Sequence record: PZ019086.1
DNA from: a phage
Strand: one strand, 5' to 3'
DNA length: 64,000 nucleotides
Every line of letters starts with the position of its first letter. Positions within the stretch are counted from its first letter, which is position 1. The notes under the pieces are model-generated. The model was not told the origin of the DNA and did no database searches. It saw only the letters and a program-made list of their open reading frames with translations. Positions 25,862-47,427 of this stretch are shown piece by piece. Position numbers and translations under genes: made by a program.

Positions 25862-26380
25862 TTAATAACCTCGGTCTTGACGTTCAAAATTATGCTTGTT
25901 CTTCAGATAATAAAGTTTAAAGATTTCTTCAGCAGTAAGACCGAGACCTTGGAACATGTTCAGAACGAAATGAAGAATATCAATCATTTCGAATTTAATT
26001 TCCAATTGGTCTTGTGGTGACAAATCAGTAATTAGAGTTTCACGACGTTCACCATGCTGTGACTTCCAAGGTTTCCATACAGCAGATGCATCTTTTTCAC
26101 CATTGCTCATACCGCCAAGAGAAGTCAGAAGTTCACGGAATTCATCATCAATGTAATCTTTCTGATTACGCAGCCAATCAACAACTTCACCTGCAGTAGC
26201 CAAATCATCAGGATGACGGTTATATTCAGGTTTATCTTTAGCTAAACGAACCTGCAGAGATTTCTGCATATCAAGCATAACCTGCAGCGGGTCTTTTTCA
26301 TCACCGAGAATATCCCAGTATTCATTTTGAGCTTTATCAGCGCCTTCGATCAGTTGTGAACATTCATTAAAGTAAGCCAT
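25862..26380 (-). CDS. 56: dCTPase / dCTP pyrophosphatase gp56 (MazG-like); true start at internal Met, track ORF over-extended to 26488
   Basis: 172 aa from MAYFNECSQ... with SD AAGGAAA; T4 gp56 is 171 aa; upstream 36 codons are low-complexity read-through of an AT-rich region. Confidence 0.75.
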   Translation of the reverse strand: MAYFNECSQLIEGADKAQNEYWDILGDEKDPLQVMLDMQKSLQVRLAKDKPEYNRHPDDLATAGEVVDWLRNQKDYIDDEFRELLTSLGGMSNGEKDASAVWKPWKSQHGERRETLITDLSPQDQLEIKFEMIDILHFVLNMFQGLGLTAEEIFKLYYLKNKHNFERQDRGY

Positions 26381-26453
26381 TATTTTTCCTTTCAATTCAT
26401 GGGTTAGTAGATTAATTATACAATAAATATATAAAGCAATAAGGAGGATATAT

Positions 26454-26654
26454 ATGGTACAAAAATTAATGGCACTTGTAGATGCCATAAAAGGTAATAA
26501 AAGACGTATAGCTTTTACTATTTCTGCTATGGTAGGAATTTTACTTTGGAATTTTGTTTTATCGCCAGTTGCTATTGCTCATGGTGTTAGTATTCCAGTA
26601 ATTACTCTCGATACATTCGTAGATTTAGCATTTGCTTTAGTTGGGTTAATTTAA
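26454..26654 (+). CDS. Plus-strand small membrane ORF (66 aa) in the 56-61 gap
   Basis: Canonical SD AAGGAGG 6 nt upstream of ATG; predicted TM segment(s); 3' end overlaps gene 61 stop by 4 nt on the opposite strand. Confidence 0.35.
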   Translation: MVQKLMALVDAIKGNKRRIAFTISAMVGILLWNFVLSPVAIAHGVSIPVITLDTFVDLAFALVGLI

Positions 26655-27679
26655 ATCTTAGCATATTTAGATAGCCGCATTTTGGCCATCAACCCTTGGG
26701 CAATATTATTTTTCATATATTCCATAATTTGTTCAGGGGTTGCACCTTCCTTTCTAATCATATCATTAACATCTTTTGATTTCCAGGGAGATTTGTCCCA
26801 AAACATAACCCTTTCTCCTGCATCAACCAATTTAGTCATTCGTTTAATAGTATCAGGGTGACGAGGTTCATTATCTAAAACCCATACACGTCTATCTTTA
26901 AATGGAACAATTTCTAGGTCTAATTGACCACCCGTAATAGCTATACCATTTTCAATAAAAAGTGAATCTATAGGTCCTTCTAGAACATATACATCACCAT
27001 CTTTGACTCGTTCAACTCCATAAATTTTTGTTGCCTCAGGATAAGCTTTGATTGTGATATATTTTTGAGGAGCATCTTTCTTTAATGCACGCCCTTGAAA
27101 AGACTCAGCTTTTCCATTAGCATTATAAATTGGAATAACAAGACGAGGCTCAGGTATTTCCTTTTTATATGTTCCTGGTGCTATACTATTAACTAATTTA
27201 GGCCATTCAGTTGTAAACCAAAGATATTTCCATTTATCCTTTGGAATACAACGGGCTTTTACATATTTTATAATTGGATGGTCTTCCGCCAGTTTATCTA
27301 ATCTAATGCATGACGGAAGAGATTTAATTATTTTCTTCTCAGGTTGTTTAGGAAGTTCTTTAGGTTTTTCTACTGGACGACTTTTACCTTTTTCTTTTCT
27401 TATTTCAAAGATATACTCACGATATAAATCAGGTTCAAACTCCTTTAAATATATTCCGATTGGTGCATGATAGTTGCAGTTATAACAATGAATATTTCCT
27501 TCATTATTATCACCATAATACCATCCACGGGCTTTATTTTGGTCGGTTTTTGAATCTCCACAAACAGGGCATCTAAACCGTAATTTAAAAGTTGAACTAT
27601 TATTTACTTGTGTGAATTTAGGTAAATGAGCCAATGCACGGTATGCAAACTCATTATCAATCCAAGGTATTGATGACAT
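26651..27679 (-). CDS. 61: DNA primase gp61
   Basis: 342 aa as T4 gp61; N-terminal zinc ribbon (CPVCGD...CYNC) and Toprim (EGPIDSLF). Confidence 0.9.
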   Translation of the reverse strand: MSSIPWIDNEFAYRALAHLPKFTQVNNSSTFKLRFRCPVCGDSKTDQNKARGWYYGDNNEGNIHCYNCNYHAPIGIYLKEFEPDLYREYIFEIRKEKGKSRPVEKPKELPKQPEKKIIKSLPSCIRLDKLAEDHPIIKYVKARCIPKDKWKYLWFTTEWPKLVNSIAPGTYKKEIPEPRLVIPIYNANGKAESFQGRALKKDAPQKYITIKAYPEATKIYGVERVKDGDVYVLEGPIDSLFIENGIAITGGQLDLEIVPFKDRRVWVLDNEPRHPDTIKRMTKLVDAGERVMFWDKSPWKSKDVNDMIRKEGATPEQIMEYMKNNIAQGLMAKMRLSKYAKI

Positions 27680-31064: not shown

Positions 31065-31427
31065 TTAAAAGAATTTAAATTTTTTCTTTGACCTTTTATT
31101 AAATGCATCTTGTAGTTGCATTGTAATACATTTTTCTACATGAGGAGCTAACTCAGCTTTTCTTTCTTGGTCAAGAACAGCAAAGTCCATTACGACTTTT
31201 CCATCAACCCAATCTAATTTTGTCACATACACAATGTGTGTAGAACCATCTTCTAGTTTAATGACAATCTCCTGGATAACATTTTCCATGGCAGATTTAA
31301 TTATCTTAAGAGATTCATTAAAAAGATGCTCTTTTCTTTCTTCTTCCCCCTCCGAAGAGGGGGATTCATCGATAATTTCTAGATCTAAATCCAAATCATC
31401 TTTATTCATTAAATTCTTCCATATCAC
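31065..31427 (-). CDS. 40: gp40 head assembly accessory protein (by position)
   Basis: 120 aa ORF between 41 and uvsX. Confidence 0.5.
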   Translation of the reverse strand: MIWKNLMNKDDLDLDLEIIDESPSSEGEEERKEHLFNESLKIIKSAMENVIQEIVIKLEDGSTHIVYVTKLDWVDGKVVMDFAVLDQERKAELAPHVEKCITMQLQDAFNKRSKKKFKFF

Positions 31428-32583
31428 TTAACTGATCTAGGTCAGTTTCTAAATCAGCTGCTGATTTACTTTTACTTTCTGGGGATTTAAATTTTTCAAC
31501 CTTTGAGTTAATCAATTCATCAACTTCAGCTTCAACAATTTCATTACTATCAATAGCACCTAACTGATAAGCGCGTTTAATAGCATCTCGGAATGGTTGA
31601 TGCTTAAATAAAGGACCCCAGAATGTAGTGCAATTGGTATCTTTTGCACGCCAAGATTTTTCTTCGCGAATCATCTCGCCGGTTTCTTCGTCAAGAAATT
31701 CACGAGCATACCAGCCATTTTTAGGTTTTACCACAAATCCTAATTCAAGAGCCATATCTAACAATCCAGAATAAGGATCGATGCCACCGTCAAATTTAAC
31801 ATCAATAAAGAATTTACTTTTTTCTTTAACTGTACGAGATTTTTCTACATTTAGAACAAATTGATACCCCTGAAGATCAGAACCATCTTTAATCTGGCGC
31901 TTACCGATAATGAATACGGTATCAGCCGAATACATTACGCCTGTACCACCTGTCATCACGGTTTTACTAAACATTTCAATTGTTTCAATTGTGTGGTTAA
32001 CCGCAACACATGGAATGTTTTTAATACTAAAATAAGGAGTAACAATACGGAATAATGACTTCAGTGATTTAGCACGAGTCATATCTGCCACAGATTTTTC
32101 ATTCAAGGCATCTTCCGTTTCTTTCTTAGAAGCCATATTACCGATTGAGTCGATGAATACAATAACTTTTTCACCGCGCTCAATAGCTTCAAGCTGATTC
32201 ACCATATCAATTTTCAGCTGTTCAACTGACTGGATTGGTGTATGAATTACTCGTTCCGGATCAACTCCCATGGATCGCAAATAAGCTGGAGTAATACCAA
32301 ATTCGCTATCATAAAATAGACATACCGCGTCAGGATATTTGTTCAAATACGCCGCAACCATAGTCAAAGACATATTTGATTTAAAGTGTTTAGAAGGACC
32401 TGCAAAAATGGTTAAACCAGACTGCATACCACCATCAATCGCACCAGAAATAGCGATATTAAGCATTGGAATTTTTGTACGGATTACATCCTTTTCATTA
32501 AAGAATTTAGATGTAGTCAGTTCAGCAGTCATTTTAGAAGTGGAAGCTTTAATCAAACGGGATTTTAAATCTGCAATAGACAT
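31402..32583 (-). CDS. uvsX: UvsX recombinase (RecA-like)
   Basis: 393 aa (T4 391); RecA-like core. Confidence 0.9.
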   Translation of the reverse strand: MSIADLKSRLIKASTSKMTAELTTSKFFNEKDVIRTKIPMLNIAISGAIDGGMQSGLTIFAGPSKHFKSNMSLTMVAAYLNKYPDAVCLFYDSEFGITPAYLRSMGVDPERVIHTPIQSVEQLKIDMVNQLEAIERGEKVIVFIDSIGNMASKKETEDALNEKSVADMTRAKSLKSLFRIVTPYFSIKNIPCVAVNHTIETIEMFSKTVMTGGTGVMYSADTVFIIGKRQIKDGSDLQGYQFVLNVEKSRTVKEKSKFFIDVKFDGGIDPYSGLLDMALELGFVVKPKNGWYAREFLDEETGEMIREEKSWRAKDTNCTTFWGPLFKHQPFRDAIKRAYQLGAIDSNEIVEAEVDELINSKVEKFKSPESKSKSAADLETDLDQLSDMEEFNE

Positions 32584-32660
32584 TCATTTTTTCCATAGGC
32601 ATCATTATATTTTCCTCACTGGTTAAAGATAGAGTAATTATAACACAATAAATTTAGGCA

Positions 32661-33509
32661 TTAATCGACTGCTATTGGATGAATAGCATTAAACTTATGA
32701 AACGCTTCTGATTTTTCTTTGCGTGAAACACACATGCGAAGAACCTTTAATGGCTCGTCTTCTTCACCCAACGATTTTCTCTTTTCGATATTCGATGTTT
32801 TCCAACGAGCTTGCTCTGGAAACTCTCTATTGATTTGCTCAAGAGCTCTATTATGTTTTGAATTACTACGAATTGAACTACATCCGCCAGGAGCTTGTGC
32901 TTTTCCAGATACAACCAGATATTTGAACAAGGCCAAATGCGGATAACCTTGATTAATTAAATTGAGAAATGCATACATATCTTCGCATAAATCAATTTTT
33001 CCATACCCAATTTGTTCTGTCGTGAGTTTTCCAAGGTCATACCATGTATTCGTGAATCCATATGAATTTTCACGATAATTACCCCAAGATGAAGTAATTT
33101 TAAAAATTGGTAGACGAGCATGGCCATGATAATACCCACAATCCATGGCATCTTCAACGTATTGAATCAATTCATAGAACTGTTCACGAGTTAATTGATT
33201 AATTTTATCTACGCAGCGACGATCATCTTTCTTTCGCATTGAACTCATACGAATAGTAGTATCATCATCAATCATCCAAATTCGTTGACCTGCATACATA
33301 TCAGTAATTGCTTTACGAGTACCAGCAATTCCATTAACATCATCAGGAATAGTTATAATTTTAGCTCTAGATCCGTAAGCGTCATAATAAGCTTTTTCTT
33401 CATGTTCACGTACTACAATATGAGGTTCATAATCAGTCGGAAACATATCAAGGGCAGAAACTGCCGCTACGCGTTGATAGCTTGGAATTACGAATTGAAT
33501 CATTTCCAT
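32661..33509 (-). CDS. Glycosyltransferase with DxD motif at the beta-gt locus; candidate HMC-DNA beta-glucosyl-alpha-glucose (gentiobiosyl) transferase
   Basis: 282 aa; QRIWMIDDDTTI (DxD); sits between uvsX and gene 42 where T4 has 351 aa beta-gt. Confidence 0.5.
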   Translation of the reverse strand: MEMIQFVIPSYQRVAAVSALDMFPTDYEPHIVVREHEEKAYYDAYGSRAKIITIPDDVNGIAGTRKAITDMYAGQRIWMIDDDTTIRMSSMRKKDDRRCVDKINQLTREQFYELIQYVEDAMDCGYYHGHARLPIFKITSSWGNYRENSYGFTNTWYDLGKLTTEQIGYGKIDLCEDMYAFLNLINQGYPHLALFKYLVVSGKAQAPGGCSSIRSNSKHNRALEQINREFPEQARWKTSNIEKRKSLGEEDEPLKVLRMCVSRKEKSEAFHKFNAIHPIAVD

Positions 33510-34240
33510 TCACCATTATAATCTTTTTTCACAATATGAGTTTCGCCAGTATTCCACCAATGATCAACCAAGTAAAAATGACGAGAATATACATGAAGAC
33601 TTCCAACATTCCATATAATAGAACCTGCTTTATACTGACGAGTTGAATCACCTGCATTCAAATCAGATACTAATTTATCTAGTACGTATTTTTGCCATGC
33701 ATAATCATTACGGAATCCGAAGACTACGTCATTTGAACGCATGCTTACTACTGCATTGACTTTCTTATCACGAATCAGGTACTGTACTGTATTCGTACAC
33801 ATGAAATCTGACATACCATCTTTATTGTAGTCAAACTGCATGGATGGACGAGTATAAATCATGATACCGCGTCGAGAATCAGGATTTTGACCAAGTTCAG
33901 CTAAACACATATCATATTGGGCATAGTTATCTTCTGACCAGATGGCCCAACCATAATTCGAATTAATTTCGCCTTTAGAAGATGCTACCTGTTGCCAAAT
34001 CTTCGGTGTTTCACCTGGAATATCTTTAACAAACAAACTTTTAGATTTATACCATTCAAGTTCACGCTGAATGTATTCATCATTAAGAGCGCCAAAAATA
34101 AAAGGTTCATCTGCTACAAATGATGCACCAATAATTTCAATAGTTTTAACACCAGTTTTATCAATTACGAAATCTTTTTCCTTTAATGCAAGACCCAAAT
34201 CAAGACGGATTTCTTCAACTGTCATATAATCGTTAATCAT
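33500..34240 (-). CDS. 42: dCMP hydroxymethylase gp42
   Basis: 246 aa as T4 gp42; thymidylate-synthase-like fold. Confidence 0.9.
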   Translation of the reverse strand: MINDYMTVEEIRLDLGLALKEKDFVIDKTGVKTIEIIGASFVADEPFIFGALNDEYIQRELEWYKSKSLFVKDIPGETPKIWQQVASSKGEINSNYGWAIWSEDNYAQYDMCLAELGQNPDSRRGIMIYTRPSMQFDYNKDGMSDFMCTNTVQYLIRDKKVNAVVSMRSNDVVFGFRNDYAWQKYVLDKLVSDLNAGDSTRQYKAGSIIWNVGSLHVYSRHFYLVDHWWNTGETHIVKKDYNGEWK

Positions 34241-34247
34241 TTAAACC

Positions 34248-34397
34248 TCAATTGATACATTCATATTTAACTTGTAACAGTAATAAACCCCAACCTATAA
34301 TAAGTGTCGGAATCATAAGAGGAACCGTTACGCTATAGTATATACTTATTATAATCATCAAGATTAAAAGCAATACTGCTAAAATTTTGCTTTTCAT
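34248..34397 (-). CDS. Small membrane peptide (49 aa), not in ORF track
   Basis: Manual translation MKSKILAVLLLILMIIISIYYSV...; ATGA overlap with imm stop. Confidence 0.35.
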   Translation of the reverse strand: MKSKILAVLLLILMIIISIYYSVTVPLMIPTLIIGWGLLLLQVKYECIN

Positions 34398-34645
34398 TCC
34401 TTCTCTCTGATGATAATTACTTGATTCGGTTGTGCAGATTTTTTAGTTTCACCTGCAATTGACCAAATAAATGTAATAAACCAACCAATAATTGACCAGT
34501 TAAACAGTAAAGATGTGAAAAAGATTCCTACTGTCGATTTTGACCCACGCATCAAGGCGATGAACCATGGAAGCATGTATATAATAATAGCCAACACGCC
34601 TGAAACTAAAACCATAAAAATTGAACCTGCTACTAAAGTTTCCAT
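34394..34645 (-). CDS. imm: Immunity protein Imm (superinfection exclusion, membrane)
   Basis: 83 aa two-TM protein between 42 and 43, as T4 Imm. Confidence 0.8.
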   Translation of the reverse strand: METLVAGSIFMVLVSGVLAIIIYMLPWFIALMRGSKSTVGIFFTSLLFNWSIIGWFITFIWSIAGETKKSAQPNQVIIIREKE

Positions 34646-34652
34646 GTTTTCC

Positions 34653-35033
34653 TCACTTAGTCAAATTTTTTACACATGAATTATAAGAATTCACTACATA
34701 CTCCATCGGAGCATTTTTACCAGTACGCCATTGATAATTATTAGCCCAATTAGCCCAAAGTCCAGCGCAATAGTTTTCAATTTTTTCTTCGCGTGTAATT
34801 ACATCCGAATTACGATATGCTTGAGCAGATTCGTCTGGACGAATAGCTTCGTCAAAATTCGCCTGCATTTGTTCTACTGTCTGCTTTGGAGCTTCTTTAT
34901 AACATTTAACATTAGGATTATAAAATTTACTTGAACAGTTTACAATTTTTCCTACATCAGACTGATTTACTACTGATCCTTGAGCTACACAACCAGTAAG
35001 ACCTAATGCAATAACCAAAATAGCAATTTTCAT
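34653..35033 (-). CDS. Lipoprotein (126 aa); track ORF over-extended to 35222
   Basis: Internal Met with SD GGAG and lipobox signal MKIAILVIALGLTGC; early promoter at 35058..35087 lies inside the longer track ORF. Confidence 0.5.
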   Translation of the reverse strand: MKIAILVIALGLTGCVAQGSVVNQSDVGKIVNCSSKFYNPNVKCYKEAPKQTVEQMQANFDEAIRPDESAQAYRNSDVITREEKIENYCAGLWANWANNYQWRTGKNAPMEYVVNSYNSCVKNLTK

Positions 35034-35057
35034 TTCATTCTCCAAATTTGTATTGGT

Positions 35058-35087
35058 TGATAGTTGTATAGTACCATGGAAGAACGG
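35058..35087 (-). promoter_or_regulatory. T4-type early promoter
   Basis: GTTTAC / 18 nt / TGG-TACTAT on minus strand. Confidence 0.5.
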
Positions 35088-35185
35088 GGATGTAAACAGT
35101 TTTGTGAAAAAATTTTTAATGAATTTACAGGACCTAGAATCATCTATTTTTCCTAAGTATAGATTTATATTACTTGTATGAAAAA

Positions 35186-35201
35186 GGGACCCGGAGGTCC
35201 C
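35186..35201 (-). terminator. Terminator hairpin after gene 43
   Basis: GGGACCCGGAGGTCCC palindrome followed by U tract on the minus strand. Confidence 0.6.
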
Positions 35202-35214
35202 TAGATTTATTCTA

Positions 35215-37911
35215 TCAGCCAAACAGGAAGTCTAACGAAGCTTTTTCCTCATAGTCCATACCTGCCGATTCACACATGCCCGCAAGCGGTTTAACAAACG
35301 ATTTTTGGAACAAAGTTGAGTAGTCAATCCAAGACAGTACGTCAGAACGAATTTCTTTTGGAAGTTCTGTGCCCGACGGCCAAGCAATACACTTGTCACC
35401 AAATGGATTTCCCTCACGTAATGGAAGAACCATTACCTTATTTCCATCCAAAATTGGAGCTACACCTAAACCGCTAACAGCTCGACGATAAGTTAGCACC
35501 CCACGAATGTGGAACGGGCATTTAAATCCTGGCCAACCTTTATCATCATATTTCGCTATATCGTTCGCAGTTTTTACTTCAGCAATAACTTTATAGTCAA
35601 GCTGACGATATTCTTTCTCAAAGTTCTTGTAGTATTCTTGGACAGACTCTTCGCCTTCCTGAAGAATACGACGAATACTTTCTTCGAGAGCTTCTTGTAC
35701 TGCTTTTGGTGTTGAGCTCTGCTGAGTTTCCATACCCATGATTTTTAGATGCGGTTCAGCAAATCGTTTATCTTCCATATCATAAACGTTCAGAGCATAA
35801 CGCTTTTTCGCTTTCCAAAATCCACCAACACCCTTTGAACCAAGTGGAGGGCAAGAAATAGCTTCACGGTCCATATGCATCAGATGCTCGCGGTTATTCA
35901 TATAATCGCATAACTCGCGATATGCAACATCAATCATAGGTTCCATCTTTTTCTTACCAAACTGATTCATGAATTCAACTAAATCATTTTGTTCTTTAAA
36001 GCGGTCAAGACCTACTTTTTCAATTACTTTATCTACGCAAACATATACCGAATCAGTATCACCTGCTGCGATGAAATCTTCACCATTAGTTCCACATACT
36101 TTATTCAGATATTCATTAATTTTGCGAGCAATCCACTGAATACCGACTTGACCGAAAATTGTAATAGCAGTAGCATTTCGCAAATCATAGTAGCGGAAAT
36201 GAATATTACCAAGAGCACCATAAAGACTGTTAATAAGAATTTTACGGTTCAGCTGATTTGTGTTAGCAAGTGTAGCAGCTTTTTCACATTCTTCAATCAG
36301 ACTATTAAGAACAGATTCGGTGTAATTCGATAATTCGTTTAAGAAATCATCACTGAACTTAACATATCGTTCAACTTCTGGTTTAGTTGAGCAAGACCCT
36401 GCACCTTTCATAATAATCTTTTTAATAGCTTCGGCATTCATTTCTTCCGCGAACATTTTCTTTTTCCAATCTTTACGCTGGAAAAATACTTTAGCGATTT
36501 CCTTTGGAATGATACCTTCTTGGTGCTTATCATACATCCATCCATTCGGAGAACAAGAATATTCATCACTTGGCTTAGGAGCTGTTCCTGCGATATATTC
36601 ATGAATTGGATGAACTTTAAACTGTCCACGAATAGTCTCAGGACTAATGTTAACCTGACGAATAATGCTAGGATACAGAGACGTCAAGTCAAAACTCATA
36701 ATGTATCGACGAGCAATCGGTTTAGGTTCAAACACAAATGCACCTGGAAAACTCTGTTTAACGTGCGAACCTTGTTGAGGAATAACCTTATGTTCACCTT
36801 TTAGTGAGTTAAAAATAATAGCATCCCAAGTTTTAATAGGACTCATTACACCAGAAAAAGGCATTTTAGCGTAATAAGACATACTTAAAACTAGATCGAT
36901 AAACCCGCGAATTTTATCAATTGCTTGAACTGATTCTACGTCAATGATGTTATAACTAATGTATCGTTGATGATTAGTCTCACGAAGTTTATTAATAGGA
37001 CCATCGTACGGCAATTTACCTTTTTTGGTTTCATGTTGAGCAACTGATTCCAAAGAGAACGATGGCAAATTAGTAAATGCGAATTTCTTGTACAAATCTA
37101 AATAATCAAGAATAGATACGCCATCAATAGAATAAATTTCTTTGCTACCGTACATATTTTGAATTAGTTTAGATTTTACTCGACCGATTGGAGAGAAGCG
37201 TTTCATACTACGTTCACCGAGAACCATTTTAACACGATTCATGATATACGGAACGTCAAATCCCTCAATATTCCAACCGGTAAAAATAGCAGGTCGTTTC
37301 TGTTCCCAGAGATTAATATATTCCATGAGCATATCACGCTCATTATCAAATGGCATATAAATTACTCGGTCAAGAATTTCTTGAGGAACTTCATCACCAC
37401 CTTCACAGTCAAGCTTAGCAGCTAACTTTGCGTCCCATTTTGATACTGAACCGTACATTGAATTCAACAAATCAAAGACGTAAAAACGATCATCAATTGA
37501 ATCATAATGAGTGATAGCATCAATTTCATATTCTGCTTTCATTGGGTCAGGAAATTTATCACCAGTAACCTCAATGTCACAGTTAGCTACACGAACAAAT
37601 TTTCGGTCATAAACAATTTCTGAACCATATGTATCACTGATATAAGCGAGTTTAAAATCGTTCATACCGAGAGCTTCGAGACCGATGTCTTCCATTCGCT
37701 TCATCCAGTCTCGTGCATCTTTCATTGATGGAAATTTTTGAGGAGCACAGTTTTTACCATAAATGTCTTTGTATTTTGACTCTTCCTTACAATGTCTAAA
37801 CATAGTCGGAAGATATTCTACTTCACGAGTACGTTCCTTTCCATTTTCATCAATATAACGCTCAACAATGTTATTTCCGACTGTTTCGATAGAGATATAA
37901 AATTCTTTCAT
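35215..37911 (-). CDS. 43: DNA polymerase gp43 (family B)
   Basis: 898 aa as T4 gp43; exonuclease and polymerase motifs including DTDS. Confidence 0.95.
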   Translation of the reverse strand: MKEFYISIETVGNNIVERYIDENGKERTREVEYLPTMFRHCKEESKYKDIYGKNCAPQKFPSMKDARDWMKRMEDIGLEALGMNDFKLAYISDTYGSEIVYDRKFVRVANCDIEVTGDKFPDPMKAEYEIDAITHYDSIDDRFYVFDLLNSMYGSVSKWDAKLAAKLDCEGGDEVPQEILDRVIYMPFDNERDMLMEYINLWEQKRPAIFTGWNIEGFDVPYIMNRVKMVLGERSMKRFSPIGRVKSKLIQNMYGSKEIYSIDGVSILDYLDLYKKFAFTNLPSFSLESVAQHETKKGKLPYDGPINKLRETNHQRYISYNIIDVESVQAIDKIRGFIDLVLSMSYYAKMPFSGVMSPIKTWDAIIFNSLKGEHKVIPQQGSHVKQSFPGAFVFEPKPIARRYIMSFDLTSLYPSIIRQVNISPETIRGQFKVHPIHEYIAGTAPKPSDEYSCSPNGWMYDKHQEGIIPKEIAKVFFQRKDWKKKMFAEEMNAEAIKKIIMKGAGSCSTKPEVERYVKFSDDFLNELSNYTESVLNSLIEECEKAATLANTNQLNRKILINSLYGALGNIHFRYYDLRNATAITIFGQVGIQWIARKINEYLNKVCGTNGEDFIAAGDTDSVYVCVDKVIEKVGLDRFKEQNDLVEFMNQFGKKKMEPMIDVAYRELCDYMNNREHLMHMDREAISCPPLGSKGVGGFWKAKKRYALNVYDMEDKRFAEPHLKIMGMETQQSSTPKAVQEALEESIRRILQEGEESVQEYYKNFEKEYRQLDYKVIAEVKTANDIAKYDDKGWPGFKCPFHIRGVLTYRRAVSGLGVAPILDGNKVMVLPLREGNPFGDKCIAWPSGTELPKEIRSDVLSWIDYSTLFQKSFVKPLAGMCESAGMDYEEKASLDFLFG

Positions 37912-41317: not shown

Positions 41318-42034
41318 ATGAATTATAAACTAATTTATGAAAAGTTAATCTCTAATGCTAAATCTCGAAAACTTGATTGCTATACTGAATCTCATCACAT
41401 TATACCACGCTGTTTAAATGGTAGCGATGATGCTTCAAACTTAGTAGATTTAACACCAGAAGAGCACTATGTAGCTCATCAACTTTTAGTAAAAATTTAT
41501 CCTTCTGAACCAAAATTAGTCTATGCTGCTAACATGATGACAGTTTCTACGAAATACGCTAAACGTAATAATAAAACTTTCGGCTGGATTCGTCGTAAAC
41601 TCTGGGAAATAGAAAAGAATAAAGAGTTCTCCCAAGAGACACGAAAGAAAATGTCCGATGCAGTAGCTAATAAAGCAAGACTAACTTGTCCACATTGCGG
41701 TAAGTCTGGATTAAGCGGGAATATGAATCGATGGCATTTTGATAACTGCCCAAATCACCCCAATCCTAAAGTTAGACCGCCAATGTCTAAAGAACACAGA
41801 AATAATATCTCAAACGGGCTTAAAGCAATCGTTCTTGAAGAAACAACCTGCGAATTCTGCGGAATGATAGGCAAGAAATGCGTTATCGCAGCGCATAGAA
41901 ATTTCTGCAAGAAAAATCCAAATGGACGCAAGAAAACTGAAAAGACTGGTACTTGCGTCCATTGTGGTAAAGTTACCACTTTCGGAAATTTATCAAGATG
42001 GCATAATGATAATTGTAAATATAAACCTAGCTAA
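41318..42034 (+). mobile_element. Free-standing HNH homing endonuclease gene with three C-terminal Cys/His zinc-finger-like repeats
   Basis: 238 aa; HNH motif ESHHIIPRCLNGSDDASNLVDLTPEEHYVAH; repeats CPHCGK...RWHFDNC, CEFCG...HRNFC, CVHCGK...RWHNDNC; opposite strand to all neighbours; 3' end overlaps gene 46 stop by 8 bp. Confidence 0.75.
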
Positions 42035-43730: not shown

Positions 43731-44585
43731 TCACAATGAAGAAAATTCTTTAACTAAAGCCTGTAATGAAGCCTCTATTGGATATCCATTCTTAACTAAC
43801 ATTTTCCTAAACATCACATGTTTAGGACGATTATATGATATCCACAATTCATACAATTTATCTTTATTATCCCAATGATAGCCTTTTCGTCGAGATGCTA
43901 TATGAGCTTTTCTAATCTCCGGATTTTTCCAACTAGCGGCTACTGAATTTGATATAGCTATTTTATATTCAGGTTTTGATAAAGCAACACGAACAGCCTT
44001 TTGGTGTTTAATTTTATTTTCTTCGTTATTAAACCATTCCCTTGAAGCCATTGAAATTTTTTGTTTTGTTTTAAAATTATTTAATCTTTCTTTGTTATCT
44101 TTCCTATTTTTTGCTACTGAAAAGTATTTTAATGCTCTTTCTCTAGCAGCATTTCTATTTTGTGGATTTGAATAATATTGTTGAAGCCTTTTTGATATTG
44201 TGTCACTTACATCTTGTTTTATAAAACTATATTCAGCAGCTATTAAATCAACTTCGGCTAAAGATAAATTTTTATATGTTTTTCCTGACATCATTCTATT
44301 TAAAGCATTTAGCATTTTTCCATTTTTACCTTTTGCTAATAAGAAATGTGCTTTAAAATGATTAAAATGACTTAAATTAACTAAATTCCATGTAGATTTT
44401 AAATATTCAGGAAATATTGATTTAGGAAGCACATGGTGTGCTTCCGTTTTACCTGGAGTTTTAACAGTTGAATTCATAGAAATAAAATTAATGTAAGACT
44501 TGGCGTCTTCTTCACTCAACGCTAATTTTTCAACTAATTCCTTTATTAAAAATTCATCATTAATGTCAAGTTTAAAATTCTTCAC
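43731..44585 (-). mobile_element. Second HNH-like nuclease ORF with NUMOD-like C-terminal repeats
   Basis: 284 aa; EAHHVLPKS...NLVNLSHFNHFKAH; repeated basic helix motifs (IRKAHIASRRK, HQKAVRVALSK); inserted between 46 and 47. Confidence 0.5.
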
Positions 44586-46224: not shown

Positions 46225-47427
46225 TTATTTTGTAATAATGTCAAACTGTTCTTTAAAGCAGAAGCTTGAATCTTGATGCTGATACAAAAATTCATAAGCT
46301 TTTTCGCGTTCACGGTCATAAAGAGCTCGGTCAGATGACAGTTCTTTAATACGCTCAAATGTTGATTCCATGTCATTTTCATCAAACCAAACGATACCGC
46401 TATCGTGTGAAATTAACGGAGTATTATCAACACGGAATTTTAAATTTTCGCCAGTAGATTTCCAAAATACCGGAATTGTTCCACATGCACCAAGCTCGAG
46501 ATGAGTGTATTCTAAAGAACGCTGTAGATATTTTTTGTCCAACTTACTCAGCTGATAACCAAATCCGGATTTACTCATGCGTTCAAGCATTTCGCTATTT
46601 ACATAACGGTCGAGAATTTGCGTTGGCAAATTAGGAGCAATTTTAATTTGGTCTACTTGATGAAGACGATAATACTCGTATGGAATTCCTTTTTCTTTAA
46701 TAGGAATGAACGCTGGAGAACGTTCCAGACCTTCCATAATAGTACTTAGTCCTGCAGGTTTAAGATGTTTTTCGTGAAAATCAAACATCTGATAAAAACC
46801 TTTCCATGTAGTCGTACGACCAATCCAACGGTTGATATTCATGTTAATTTCAGAAACATCTTTCCAGTAGGTTGATCGAACCTTCGCAATATCCATAGGA
46901 GGCTGAAAGTTATATACGGTCGGTGCTTCTTCAATATCATCAAACAGAGAAACAGTTTCCGGATACCATTCTTTCATCAAAACTTTATTAAAGTCACCAT
47001 TATCAGAATGGCTAAAAATAACATCAGCTCGACGAACAGTTTCTTCTAATCCCAAATTTCGACGCAAAGAAAGAGAAGAATGGTCATGCTGATAAACTAC
47101 AACACGAACCGAAGGTTTAATGTTATCAATAATTTTTTTATAGTTATTAATTGTGTCTTCTTCGACTGAAGTAGCAGGAACTGAATTGATAACTAGAATA
47201 TCACAATCATTTACCAGCTTAAGCGTTTTATCGTATTCTTTTGCCAATAAAACCGGAATTGAAAATGATTTATAATCATGCGCGCAATTACGAGTAAATG
47301 ATTTATCTTTAGCATAAACCAAAGTTACTTCATGACCATTTTTAATAAACCAATCACGCTGCTCAAGAGAAAATTTAGTTACACCGCAACCTTCAAGACC
47401 TCGAGCCATAAAAATACATACTTTCAT
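46225..47427 (-). CDS. agt: DNA alpha-glucosyltransferase
   Basis: 400 aa as T4 alpha-gt, located after gene 47. Confidence 0.8.
   Translation of the reverse strand: MKVCIFMARGLEGCGVTKFSLEQRDWFIKNGHEVTLVYAKDKSFTRNCAHDYKSFSIPVLLAKEYDKTLKLVNDCDILVINSVPATSVEEDTINNYKKIIDNIKPSVRVVVYQHDHSSLSLRRNLGLEETVRRADVIFSHSDNGDFNKVLMKEWYPETVSLFDDIEEAPTVYNFQPPMDIAKVRSTYWKDVSEINMNINRWIGRTTTWKGFYQMFDFHEKHLKPAGLSTIMEGLERSPAFIPIKEKGIPYEYYRLHQVDQIKIAPNLPTQILDRYVNSEMLERMSKSGFGYQLSKLDKKYLQRSLEYTHLELGACGTIPVFWKSTGENLKFRVDNTPLISHDSGIVWFDENDMESTFERIKELSSDRALYDREREKAYEFLYQHQDSSFCFKEQFDIITK

Follow-up and report, generated by a model that had tools for sequence, protein, structure and literature searches.

A probable β-glucosyl-HMC-α-glucosyltransferase gene in the β-glucosyltransferase slot of a T-even-like coliphage

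The gene between gene 42 and uvsX in phage record PZ019086.1 is, with a probability of about 0.92, the Tequatrovirus β-glucosyl-HMC-α-glucosyltransferase gene (βα-gt, also called g-gt or TAGT). It lies on the minus strand at 32661..33503 of the window, by which we mean the whole 64,000-nucleotide (64 kb) stretch of DNA that was analysed, and encodes 280 amino acids from a conserved ATG, with the stop codon included in these coordinates. The first-pass annotation had suspected the T2/T6-type enzyme and proposed a homology search against it. That search has now been run and returns an orthologue, 98-99% identical, so that the suspicion was well founded. The protein matches PHROG 842, "beta-glucosyl-HMC-alpha-glucosyltransferase", with an E value of 8e-89, and residue by residue it is identical to the T2 enzyme at 275 of 280 positions and to the alleles in the T6 genome records at 273 of 280. 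The T2 sequence occurs in several T2 genome records, and the T6 genome-record sequence, once its single lesion is repaired, is exactly UniProt Q06718 / CAA48667. The Pfam family PF20691 (TET-associated glycosyltransferase, TAGT) matches residues 5-209 over profile positions 2-205 of 205, scoring 40.4 bits against a gathering cut-off of 27.5; in NCBIfam no family matched this protein or the α-glucosyltransferase discussed below. Among 50,697 phage records searched with tblastn, 689 contain a match; in 472 the identity is at least 95%, and most of these are annotated as the βα-gt enzyme. The exact protein sequence is absent from a collection of 15 billion proteins. Over the flanking 9 kb, identity reaches 97.5% with phage ime09 and about 97% with a large number of other Tequatroviruses, and the DNA thus comes from an ordinary T-even-like coliphage.

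The locus and the reading frame

The neighbours of the gene are well defined. On one side lies gene 42 for dCMP hydroxymethylase (33500..34240, minus strand; PDB 1b49/1b5e, E 9e-163 over 245 aa), with imm, imm.1 and the gene for DNA polymerase gp43 upstream of it. On the other side, forming the downstream flank, lies the recombinase gene uvsX (31402..32583, minus strand; phrog_97, E 1e-109), the DNA of which is 91.7% identical to T4 by blastn against NC_000866. In the same comparison, homology to T4 stops at 32571 and restarts at 33518, within the final codons of gene 42. The breakpoints are sharp, with no DNA homology from one to the other: a cassette of 946 bp (32572..33517) replaces 1941 bp of T4 that hold segA and b-gt. 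The T4 order is gene 42, b-gt, segA, uvsX. The first-pass annotation had thus placed the gene correctly at the β-glucosyltransferase locus, and it was also right that T4 has a b-gt of 351 aa in the syntenic position, where segA, which it did not mention, is found as well. The order 42 / βα-gt / uvsX is common to T2, T6, BGP, Solly and QOTSP; for Geo the comparison covers the 42 / βα-gt junction, which is present. A tblastn search of the 64-kb window for a homologue of T4 b-gt gave nothing below an E value of 1. For segA elsewhere in the window there is a weak GIY-YIG-like match alone (E 0.006), inside a homing-endonuclease ORF at 43731-44585.

It is worth noting that βα-gt in the slot of T4 b-gt is the usual state in Tequatroviruses, and that T4 is the exception. 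The T4 type, with α-GT and β-GT together, is found in only 6 of 753 phage genomes that encode such glycosyltransferases, while the combination of α-GT and TAGT is common (PMC13216743). Likewise, 12 of 14 other sequenced RB phages have a-gt and ba-gt, and RB69 is without a homologue (PMC6024577). T4 b-gt (NP_049658) is like the enzyme described here in its slot downstream of gene 42, in its use of UDP-glucose and in making a β-linkage on hmC DNA, but the two are unrelated in sequence (the best blastp match has an E value of 3.4 over 8 residues). They also differ in fold, GT-B for T4 b-gt (PMC13216743) and GT-A for βα-gt, in the presence of segA beside the T4 gene, and in the acceptor, which is bare hmC for T4 b-gt and α-glucosyl-hmC for βα-gt.

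The open reading frame on the minus strand formally runs from 33509 to 32661 and has 282 codons for amino acids, among them those for the sequence W-M-I-D-D-D-T-T. The 282 aa given by the first-pass annotation therefore correspond to a frame that exists, but the conserved start at 33503 gives 280 aa, and this is probably the true start. The additional in-frame ATG at 33509 is created by a synonymous change of a gene 42 Glu codon from GAG to GAA; the corresponding triplet in T2 and T6 is GTG. We rejected this upstream start because it is not conserved, and its position one base past GGTG, the possible ribosome-binding site, also counts against it. A length of 280 aa is annotated for βα-gt in T2, BGP, Solly, QOTSP and Geo, and is also the length cited for ba-gt of T2 (PMC6024577). 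At 33500..33503 (minus strand) the start codon overlaps the TGA stop codon of gene 42 in the sequence ATGA, and this junction is identical in T2 and T6. It is the arrangement expected for translational coupling, so βα-gt may well be translated by coupling to gene 42. A scan of 32400-34500 gave 12 promoter-like sites where 10.5 ± 3.2 are expected, none of them above chance, and 0 terminators, so that there is no evidence of a separate βα-gt transcription unit in this region. The coding sequence is free of homopolymers of six or more nucleotides.

Two further regions of the window deserve a comment on their annotation. In the imm.1 region, upstream of imm, a mechanically called ORF at 34653-35222 (minus strand) has 189 aa and a TTG start, but it matches imm.1 (phrog_1754) over residues 64-189 only, and the real gene is probably an imm.1 of 126 aa. 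The N-terminal extension, which weakly matches another small family, phrog_28140 (E 4e-6), could represent a small gene of its own. Gene 46 is flanked by two homing-endonuclease ORFs, at 41318-42034 (plus strand) and at 43731-44585 (minus strand), both of which belong to phrog_655 (E 1e-68 and 8e-45). The former lies on the other strand from all of the genes around it, and it shares 8 nt with the 5' end (start) of gene 46. T2 and T6 differ here, having a different or a single insert around gene 46.

Fold and conserved residues

A bare DxD motif is weak evidence for a glycosyltransferase, and this protein has several D-rich spots. The GT-A-type DxD motif that the first-pass annotation had read in WMIDDDTT is nevertheless supported by the modelled fold and by conservation in the family. 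A HMMER search of 1.84 billion representative proteins found 327 relatives at E <= 1e-3, and 80 of these, down to about 20% identity, were aligned. In this alignment Arg11, Asp80, Asp175 and Gly207 are invariant, and Pro7, Arg63, Asp79, Asp81, Gly206 and Arg212 are nearly so. Within the DDD motif the middle aspartate is found in 80 of 80 sequences, Asp79 in 78 and Asp81 in 79. On the DNA level the motif is a (GAT)3 run at 33261..33269; the codon for Arg11, in the N-terminal motif I-P-S-Y-Q-R, lies at 33471..33473, and that for Asp175, in the motif C-E-D-M-Y, at 32979..32981, all on the minus strand, and the last two residues are again the same in 80 of 80 sequences.

The AlphaFold2 model, which was built with the alignment of relatives, has a pLDDT of 94.3 and a pTM of 0.92. 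Its fold is of the GT-A type, a single Rossmann-like α/β/α arrangement in which DDD79-81 directly follows the strand 74-78. This agrees with a published AlphaFold3 model of the T6 TAGT, which was described as a GT-A fold that is sister to GT2 (PMC13216743). From the model, DDD79-81 is the predicted site for binding of a divalent metal and the UDP diphosphate. Among GT-A enzymes, those of the GT2-like type act with inversion at the anomeric centre, which fits a βα-gt that takes UDP-α-glucose as donor and gives a β-linked product. Asp175 is accordingly a candidate for the catalytic base of an inverting enzyme, because of the GT2-like fold and the inversion from an α-donor to a β-product. Sequence searches of the PDB with the protein gave no match, and it appears that no structure of the PF20691/TAGT family has been solved. 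Most PF20691 members are only 20-35% identical to βα-gt, and the family, like the cellular GT-A enzymes of the GT2 family, is a looser comparison than T2 or T6: many TAGTs occur without an α- or β-GT and probably have another acceptor, while here it is a sugar that is already on the DNA (PMC13216743).

Arg11, DDD79-81, Asp175 and Gly206-207 are all intact in this copy. As it is full length and has all of the invariant residues, the enzyme is presumably active. Three substitutions are specific to it, G13A, R92K and V101I. G13A is absent from the seven close relatives with which a residue-level comparison was made (T2, the two T6 records, BGP, Geo, Solly and QOTSP) and from the 15 proteins sampled in the 90% cluster. 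It sits two residues from the invariant Arg11, but position 13 is variable in the wider family, and an effect on the enzyme is therefore unlikely.

Pathway partners and DNA modification

The chemistry discussed in this section and the phenotype of the T6 Δba-gt mutant come from the literature, while orthology, locus, fold, motifs and pathway genes were computed here. Two further genes of the pathway were found in the window. The DNA α-glucosyltransferase gene a-gt lies at 46225..47427 (minus strand; phrog_2888, E 9e-222; PDB 1xv5, E 7e-257), and its product is identical to that of Solly at 397 of 400 positions, to that of T2 at 395 and to that of T6 at 364. Gene 56, for the dCTPase/dUTPase that excludes unmodified dCTP, lies at 25862..26488 (minus strand) with an uncertain start codon, and matches phrog_173, nucleoside triphosphate pyrophosphohydrolase (E 5e-46). 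With α-gt, gp56 and gp42 all encoded in the 64 kb, α-glucosyl-hmC, the acceptor of βα-gt, can be made. In the proposed pathway, gp42 and gp56 would cause the phage DNA to be made with 5-hydroxymethylcytosine (hmC) instead of cytosine, and α-gt, a GT-B enzyme, would then put an α-linked glucose onto about three in four hmC residues. Binding UDP-glucose through a divalent metal and its DDD motif, the GT-A enzyme βα-gt would attach another glucose to the α-glucose by a β-1,6-linkage, with inversion, resulting in gentiobiosyl-hmC.

Experiments on related phages agree with such a pathway. A T6 Δba-gt mutant has α-glucosyl-hmC only; its sensitivity to Brig1 is changed and its DNA is a Brig1 substrate in vitro (PMC11078745), and in a similar way the DNA of T6 Δg-gt turns into a substrate of BapA (bioRxiv 10.64898/2026.02.25.707755). 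For ten Tequatroviruses from the Durham Collection that have α-GT and a TAGT syntenic with T4 β-GT, LC-MS identified α-gentiobiosyl-hmC (PMC13390438).

The first-pass annotation expected the gene to predict the modification state of the DNA. This is true in part only: phages with α-gt and βα-gt do show gentiobiosyl-hmC, but the level varies, from about 5% to 72%, and the gene alone does not predict the modification state. T2 DNA has about 70% α-glucosyl-hmC, 5% gentiobiosyl-hmC and 25% bare hmC, while T6 DNA has about 3%, 72% and 25%, respectively (PMC6024577, PMC13390438, bioRxiv 10.64898/2026.02.25.707755). EL, BGP and Geo from the Durham Collection are intermediate, with about 40% gentiobiosyl-hmC and a ratio of hmC to α-glucosyl-hmC to gentiobiosyl-hmC of about 1:2:2, and Solly, QOTSP and five others have about two-thirds α-gentiobiosyl-hmC, with about one-third hmC in Solly and QOTSP (PMC13390438). 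T2, T6, Solly, QOTSP, BGP, Geo and EL thus cover the range of about 5-72% despite βα-gt enzymes that are more than 97% identical.

Among phages of known DNA composition, the nearest alleles that we found are those of Solly and QOTSP (OY720021 and OY720014), which have three or four amino-acid differences from the enzyme described here (277 and 276 of 280 identical); BGP and Geo are at 272 of 280 and share a distinct haplotype with V50, I89, K95, R97, S202 and H203. Since both transferases are nearest to alleles of phages with this composition, gentiobiosyl-hmC would account for about two-thirds of the hmC residues in the virion DNA of the phage and bare hmC for about one-third, with mono-α-glucosyl-hmC scarce. 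We consider this composition reasonably likely, though much less certain than the identity of the gene, the two-thirds figure being an extrapolation from the nearest alleles in a group where the ratio varies widely among enzymes that are more than 97% identical. The inventory of transferases covers the 64 kb of the window, and a further transferase is possible elsewhere in the genome.

The type of α-gt allele was considered as a determinant of the ratio of mono- to diglucosylation and rejected, because T2 (5%) and Solly (about 67%) have the same type of α-gt; T6 (72%) and BGP (about 40%), which have the other type, also speak against it. The α-gt gene has an A7 run at 47133-47139 (CDS nt 289-295), as in T2 and Solly, where T6 and BGP have A6, and a second homopolymer, an A6 run, at CDS nt 892-897. 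The site of the A7 run has been reported as a frameshift-prone "contingency locus" in agt of T2 (bioRxiv 10.1101/2025.10.21.683753). The prediction for the DNA also draws on the dam methyltransferase gene, which is missing from its T2/T4 position between genes 56 and 61; T6 and Solly likewise lack it there. Gene 61 is at 26651-27679, and instead of dam there is a small dam.1-like ORF on the plus strand (26454-26654), again as in T6 and Solly. In this small set, T2, BGP and Geo, which have dam, have less gentiobiosyl-hmC than T6 and Solly, which lack it, but this may be a phylogenetic correlation only.

Alleles of T2 and T6 and the level of the second glucose

The T2 enzyme (UniProt Q06717, annotated as "b-gt", T2_042, in NC_054931) resembles the one described here in its length of 280 aa, its slot and its ATGA overlap. 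Of the differences between the two, Ala13, Lys92 and Ile101 belong to the PZ019086.1 enzyme, and His11 and Ser251 to that of T2, where the enzyme described here has Arg and Pro like the rest of the compared set. Between T2 and Solly there are only two differences in βα-gt, R11H and P251S, and two in α-gt, D327E and T368A, and the DNA that flanks βα-gt is identical over 60 nt before the gene and 90 nt after it. His11 is found in the T2 records NC_054931 (7295-8137, minus strand) and PV648364 (4007-4849, plus strand) and in a cluster member, P0161, while Arg is found in 80 of 80 relatives; when 15 proteins of the 90% cluster were sampled, T2 was the sole case of His11. Because Arg11 is invariant in the family and T2 and Solly have few other differences, R11H is a strong candidate for the cause of the low diglucosylation (about 5%) of T2. 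No statement to this effect was found in the literature, of which coverage was limited.

The T6 enzyme (UniProt Q06718; ba-gt, g-gt or ggt) is also like the one described here, in the same locus and with no dam between genes 56 and 61, and it is the one for which deletion genetics exist (PMC11078745; bioRxiv 10.64898/2026.02.25.707755). It differs in having N40, G55 and H106, and the α-gt of T6 is a different allele. Both complete T6 genome records have one lesion each in ba-gt relative to Q06718. In MH550421 (7138-7980, minus strand) codon 10 is changed from CAG to the amber codon TAG, and the CDS is annotated from Met20, with 261 aa. In AP018814 (7135-7974, minus strand) one GAT is lost in-frame from the (GAT)3 run, which turns DDD into DD and leaves 279 aa. 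These look like independent mutations of the respective stocks, or sequencing errors, because other T6 stocks do make gentiobiosyl-hmC (PMC11078745, PMC13390438). The shortened protein of MH550421 may have been propagated into RefSeq; this record is the one that we expect to underlie the T6 RefSeq entry. The observations on His11 and on the T6 lesions bear on the reference phages and not on PZ019086.1.

Given these examples, it could be asked if the gene described here is present but weak or inactive, so that the DNA has mainly mono-α-glucosyl-hmC. T2 carries the gene and yet has only about 5% gentiobiosyl-hmC (PMC13390438), two independent T6 records have a nonsense codon or a deletion inside DDD, and G13A is close to the invariant Arg11 and unseen in the close relatives examined. 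In the present case, however, the reading frame and the residues that are damaged or replaced in those alleles are intact, as are Asp175 and Gly206-207; neither R11H nor P251S is present, position 13 varies in the family, and the nearest alleles come from phages with about two-thirds gentiobiosyl-hmC (PMC13390438). We therefore regard a weak or inactive enzyme as very improbable.

Least probable of all, and hardly to be expected, is that the enzyme is a primary DNA glycosyltransferase that acts on bare 5-hmC directly. In its favour, what defines PF20691 is an association with the TET/JBP oxygenases, by which 5hmC in DNA is formed; in 288 of 753 phage genomes a TAGT stands alone, with neither α- nor β-GT, so that some members must use another acceptor (PMC13216743); and about 25-33% of hmC is unglucosylated in phages of the present kind and so available as substrate. 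Against it, identity to the enzymes of T2 and T6 is 98-99%, deletion of ba-gt in T6 leaves α-glucosylation in place and removes the second glucose only (PMC11078745; bioRxiv 10.64898/2026.02.25.707755), T2 that is agt-null but has βα-gt behaves as unglucosylated, being McrBC-sensitive and TgvAB-resistant (bioRxiv 10.1101/2025.10.21.683753), and β-glucosyl-hmC was undetected by LC-MS in the Durham Tequatroviruses with this gene set, α-GT and TAGT (PMC13390438). The T2 allele may be weak, which limits the argument from the agt-null phage.

With the gene taken as βα-gt, the alleles also invite a more general reading, in which the ratio of mono- to diglucosylated hmC in T-even phages is set mainly by the βα-gt alleles and can be read from the sequence. 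We hold this reading to be possible but rather doubtful. If it is true, the difference between T2 (about 5%) and Solly and T6 (about 67-72%) would be due to His11, possibly together with P251S; Arg11 in the phage described here would predict DNA with a majority of gentiobiosyl-hmC; and the damage to the gene in the two T6 stocks that were sequenced would mean that phages passaged in the laboratory easily lose the second glucose.

The interpretation given by the first-pass annotation is correct but has already been published in its parts, that is the genetics of T6 Δba-gt, the LC-MS of related phages and the GT-A model. What is added here is the quantitative prediction of gentiobiosyl-hmC content from the nearest alleles. 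The presence of the gene has value for annotation and brings no new biology: this is a typical Tequatrovirus with α-gt and βα-gt, for which gentiobiosyl-hmC is expected. Such a modification matters for the question of which DNA-targeting defences are escaped or triggered (Brig1, BapA and enzymes of the GmrSD/BrxU type), as gentiobiosyl DNA resists the Brig1 glycosylase and deglucosylation by BapA in vitro but is still a target of the GmrSD family. It also matters for whether the phage DNA can be cut or sequenced, and for the prediction of host range in phage therapy. The Arg11His substitution of T2 and the damaged ba-gt genes in the T6 records could help work on DNA modification in T-even phages, and are cheap to test.
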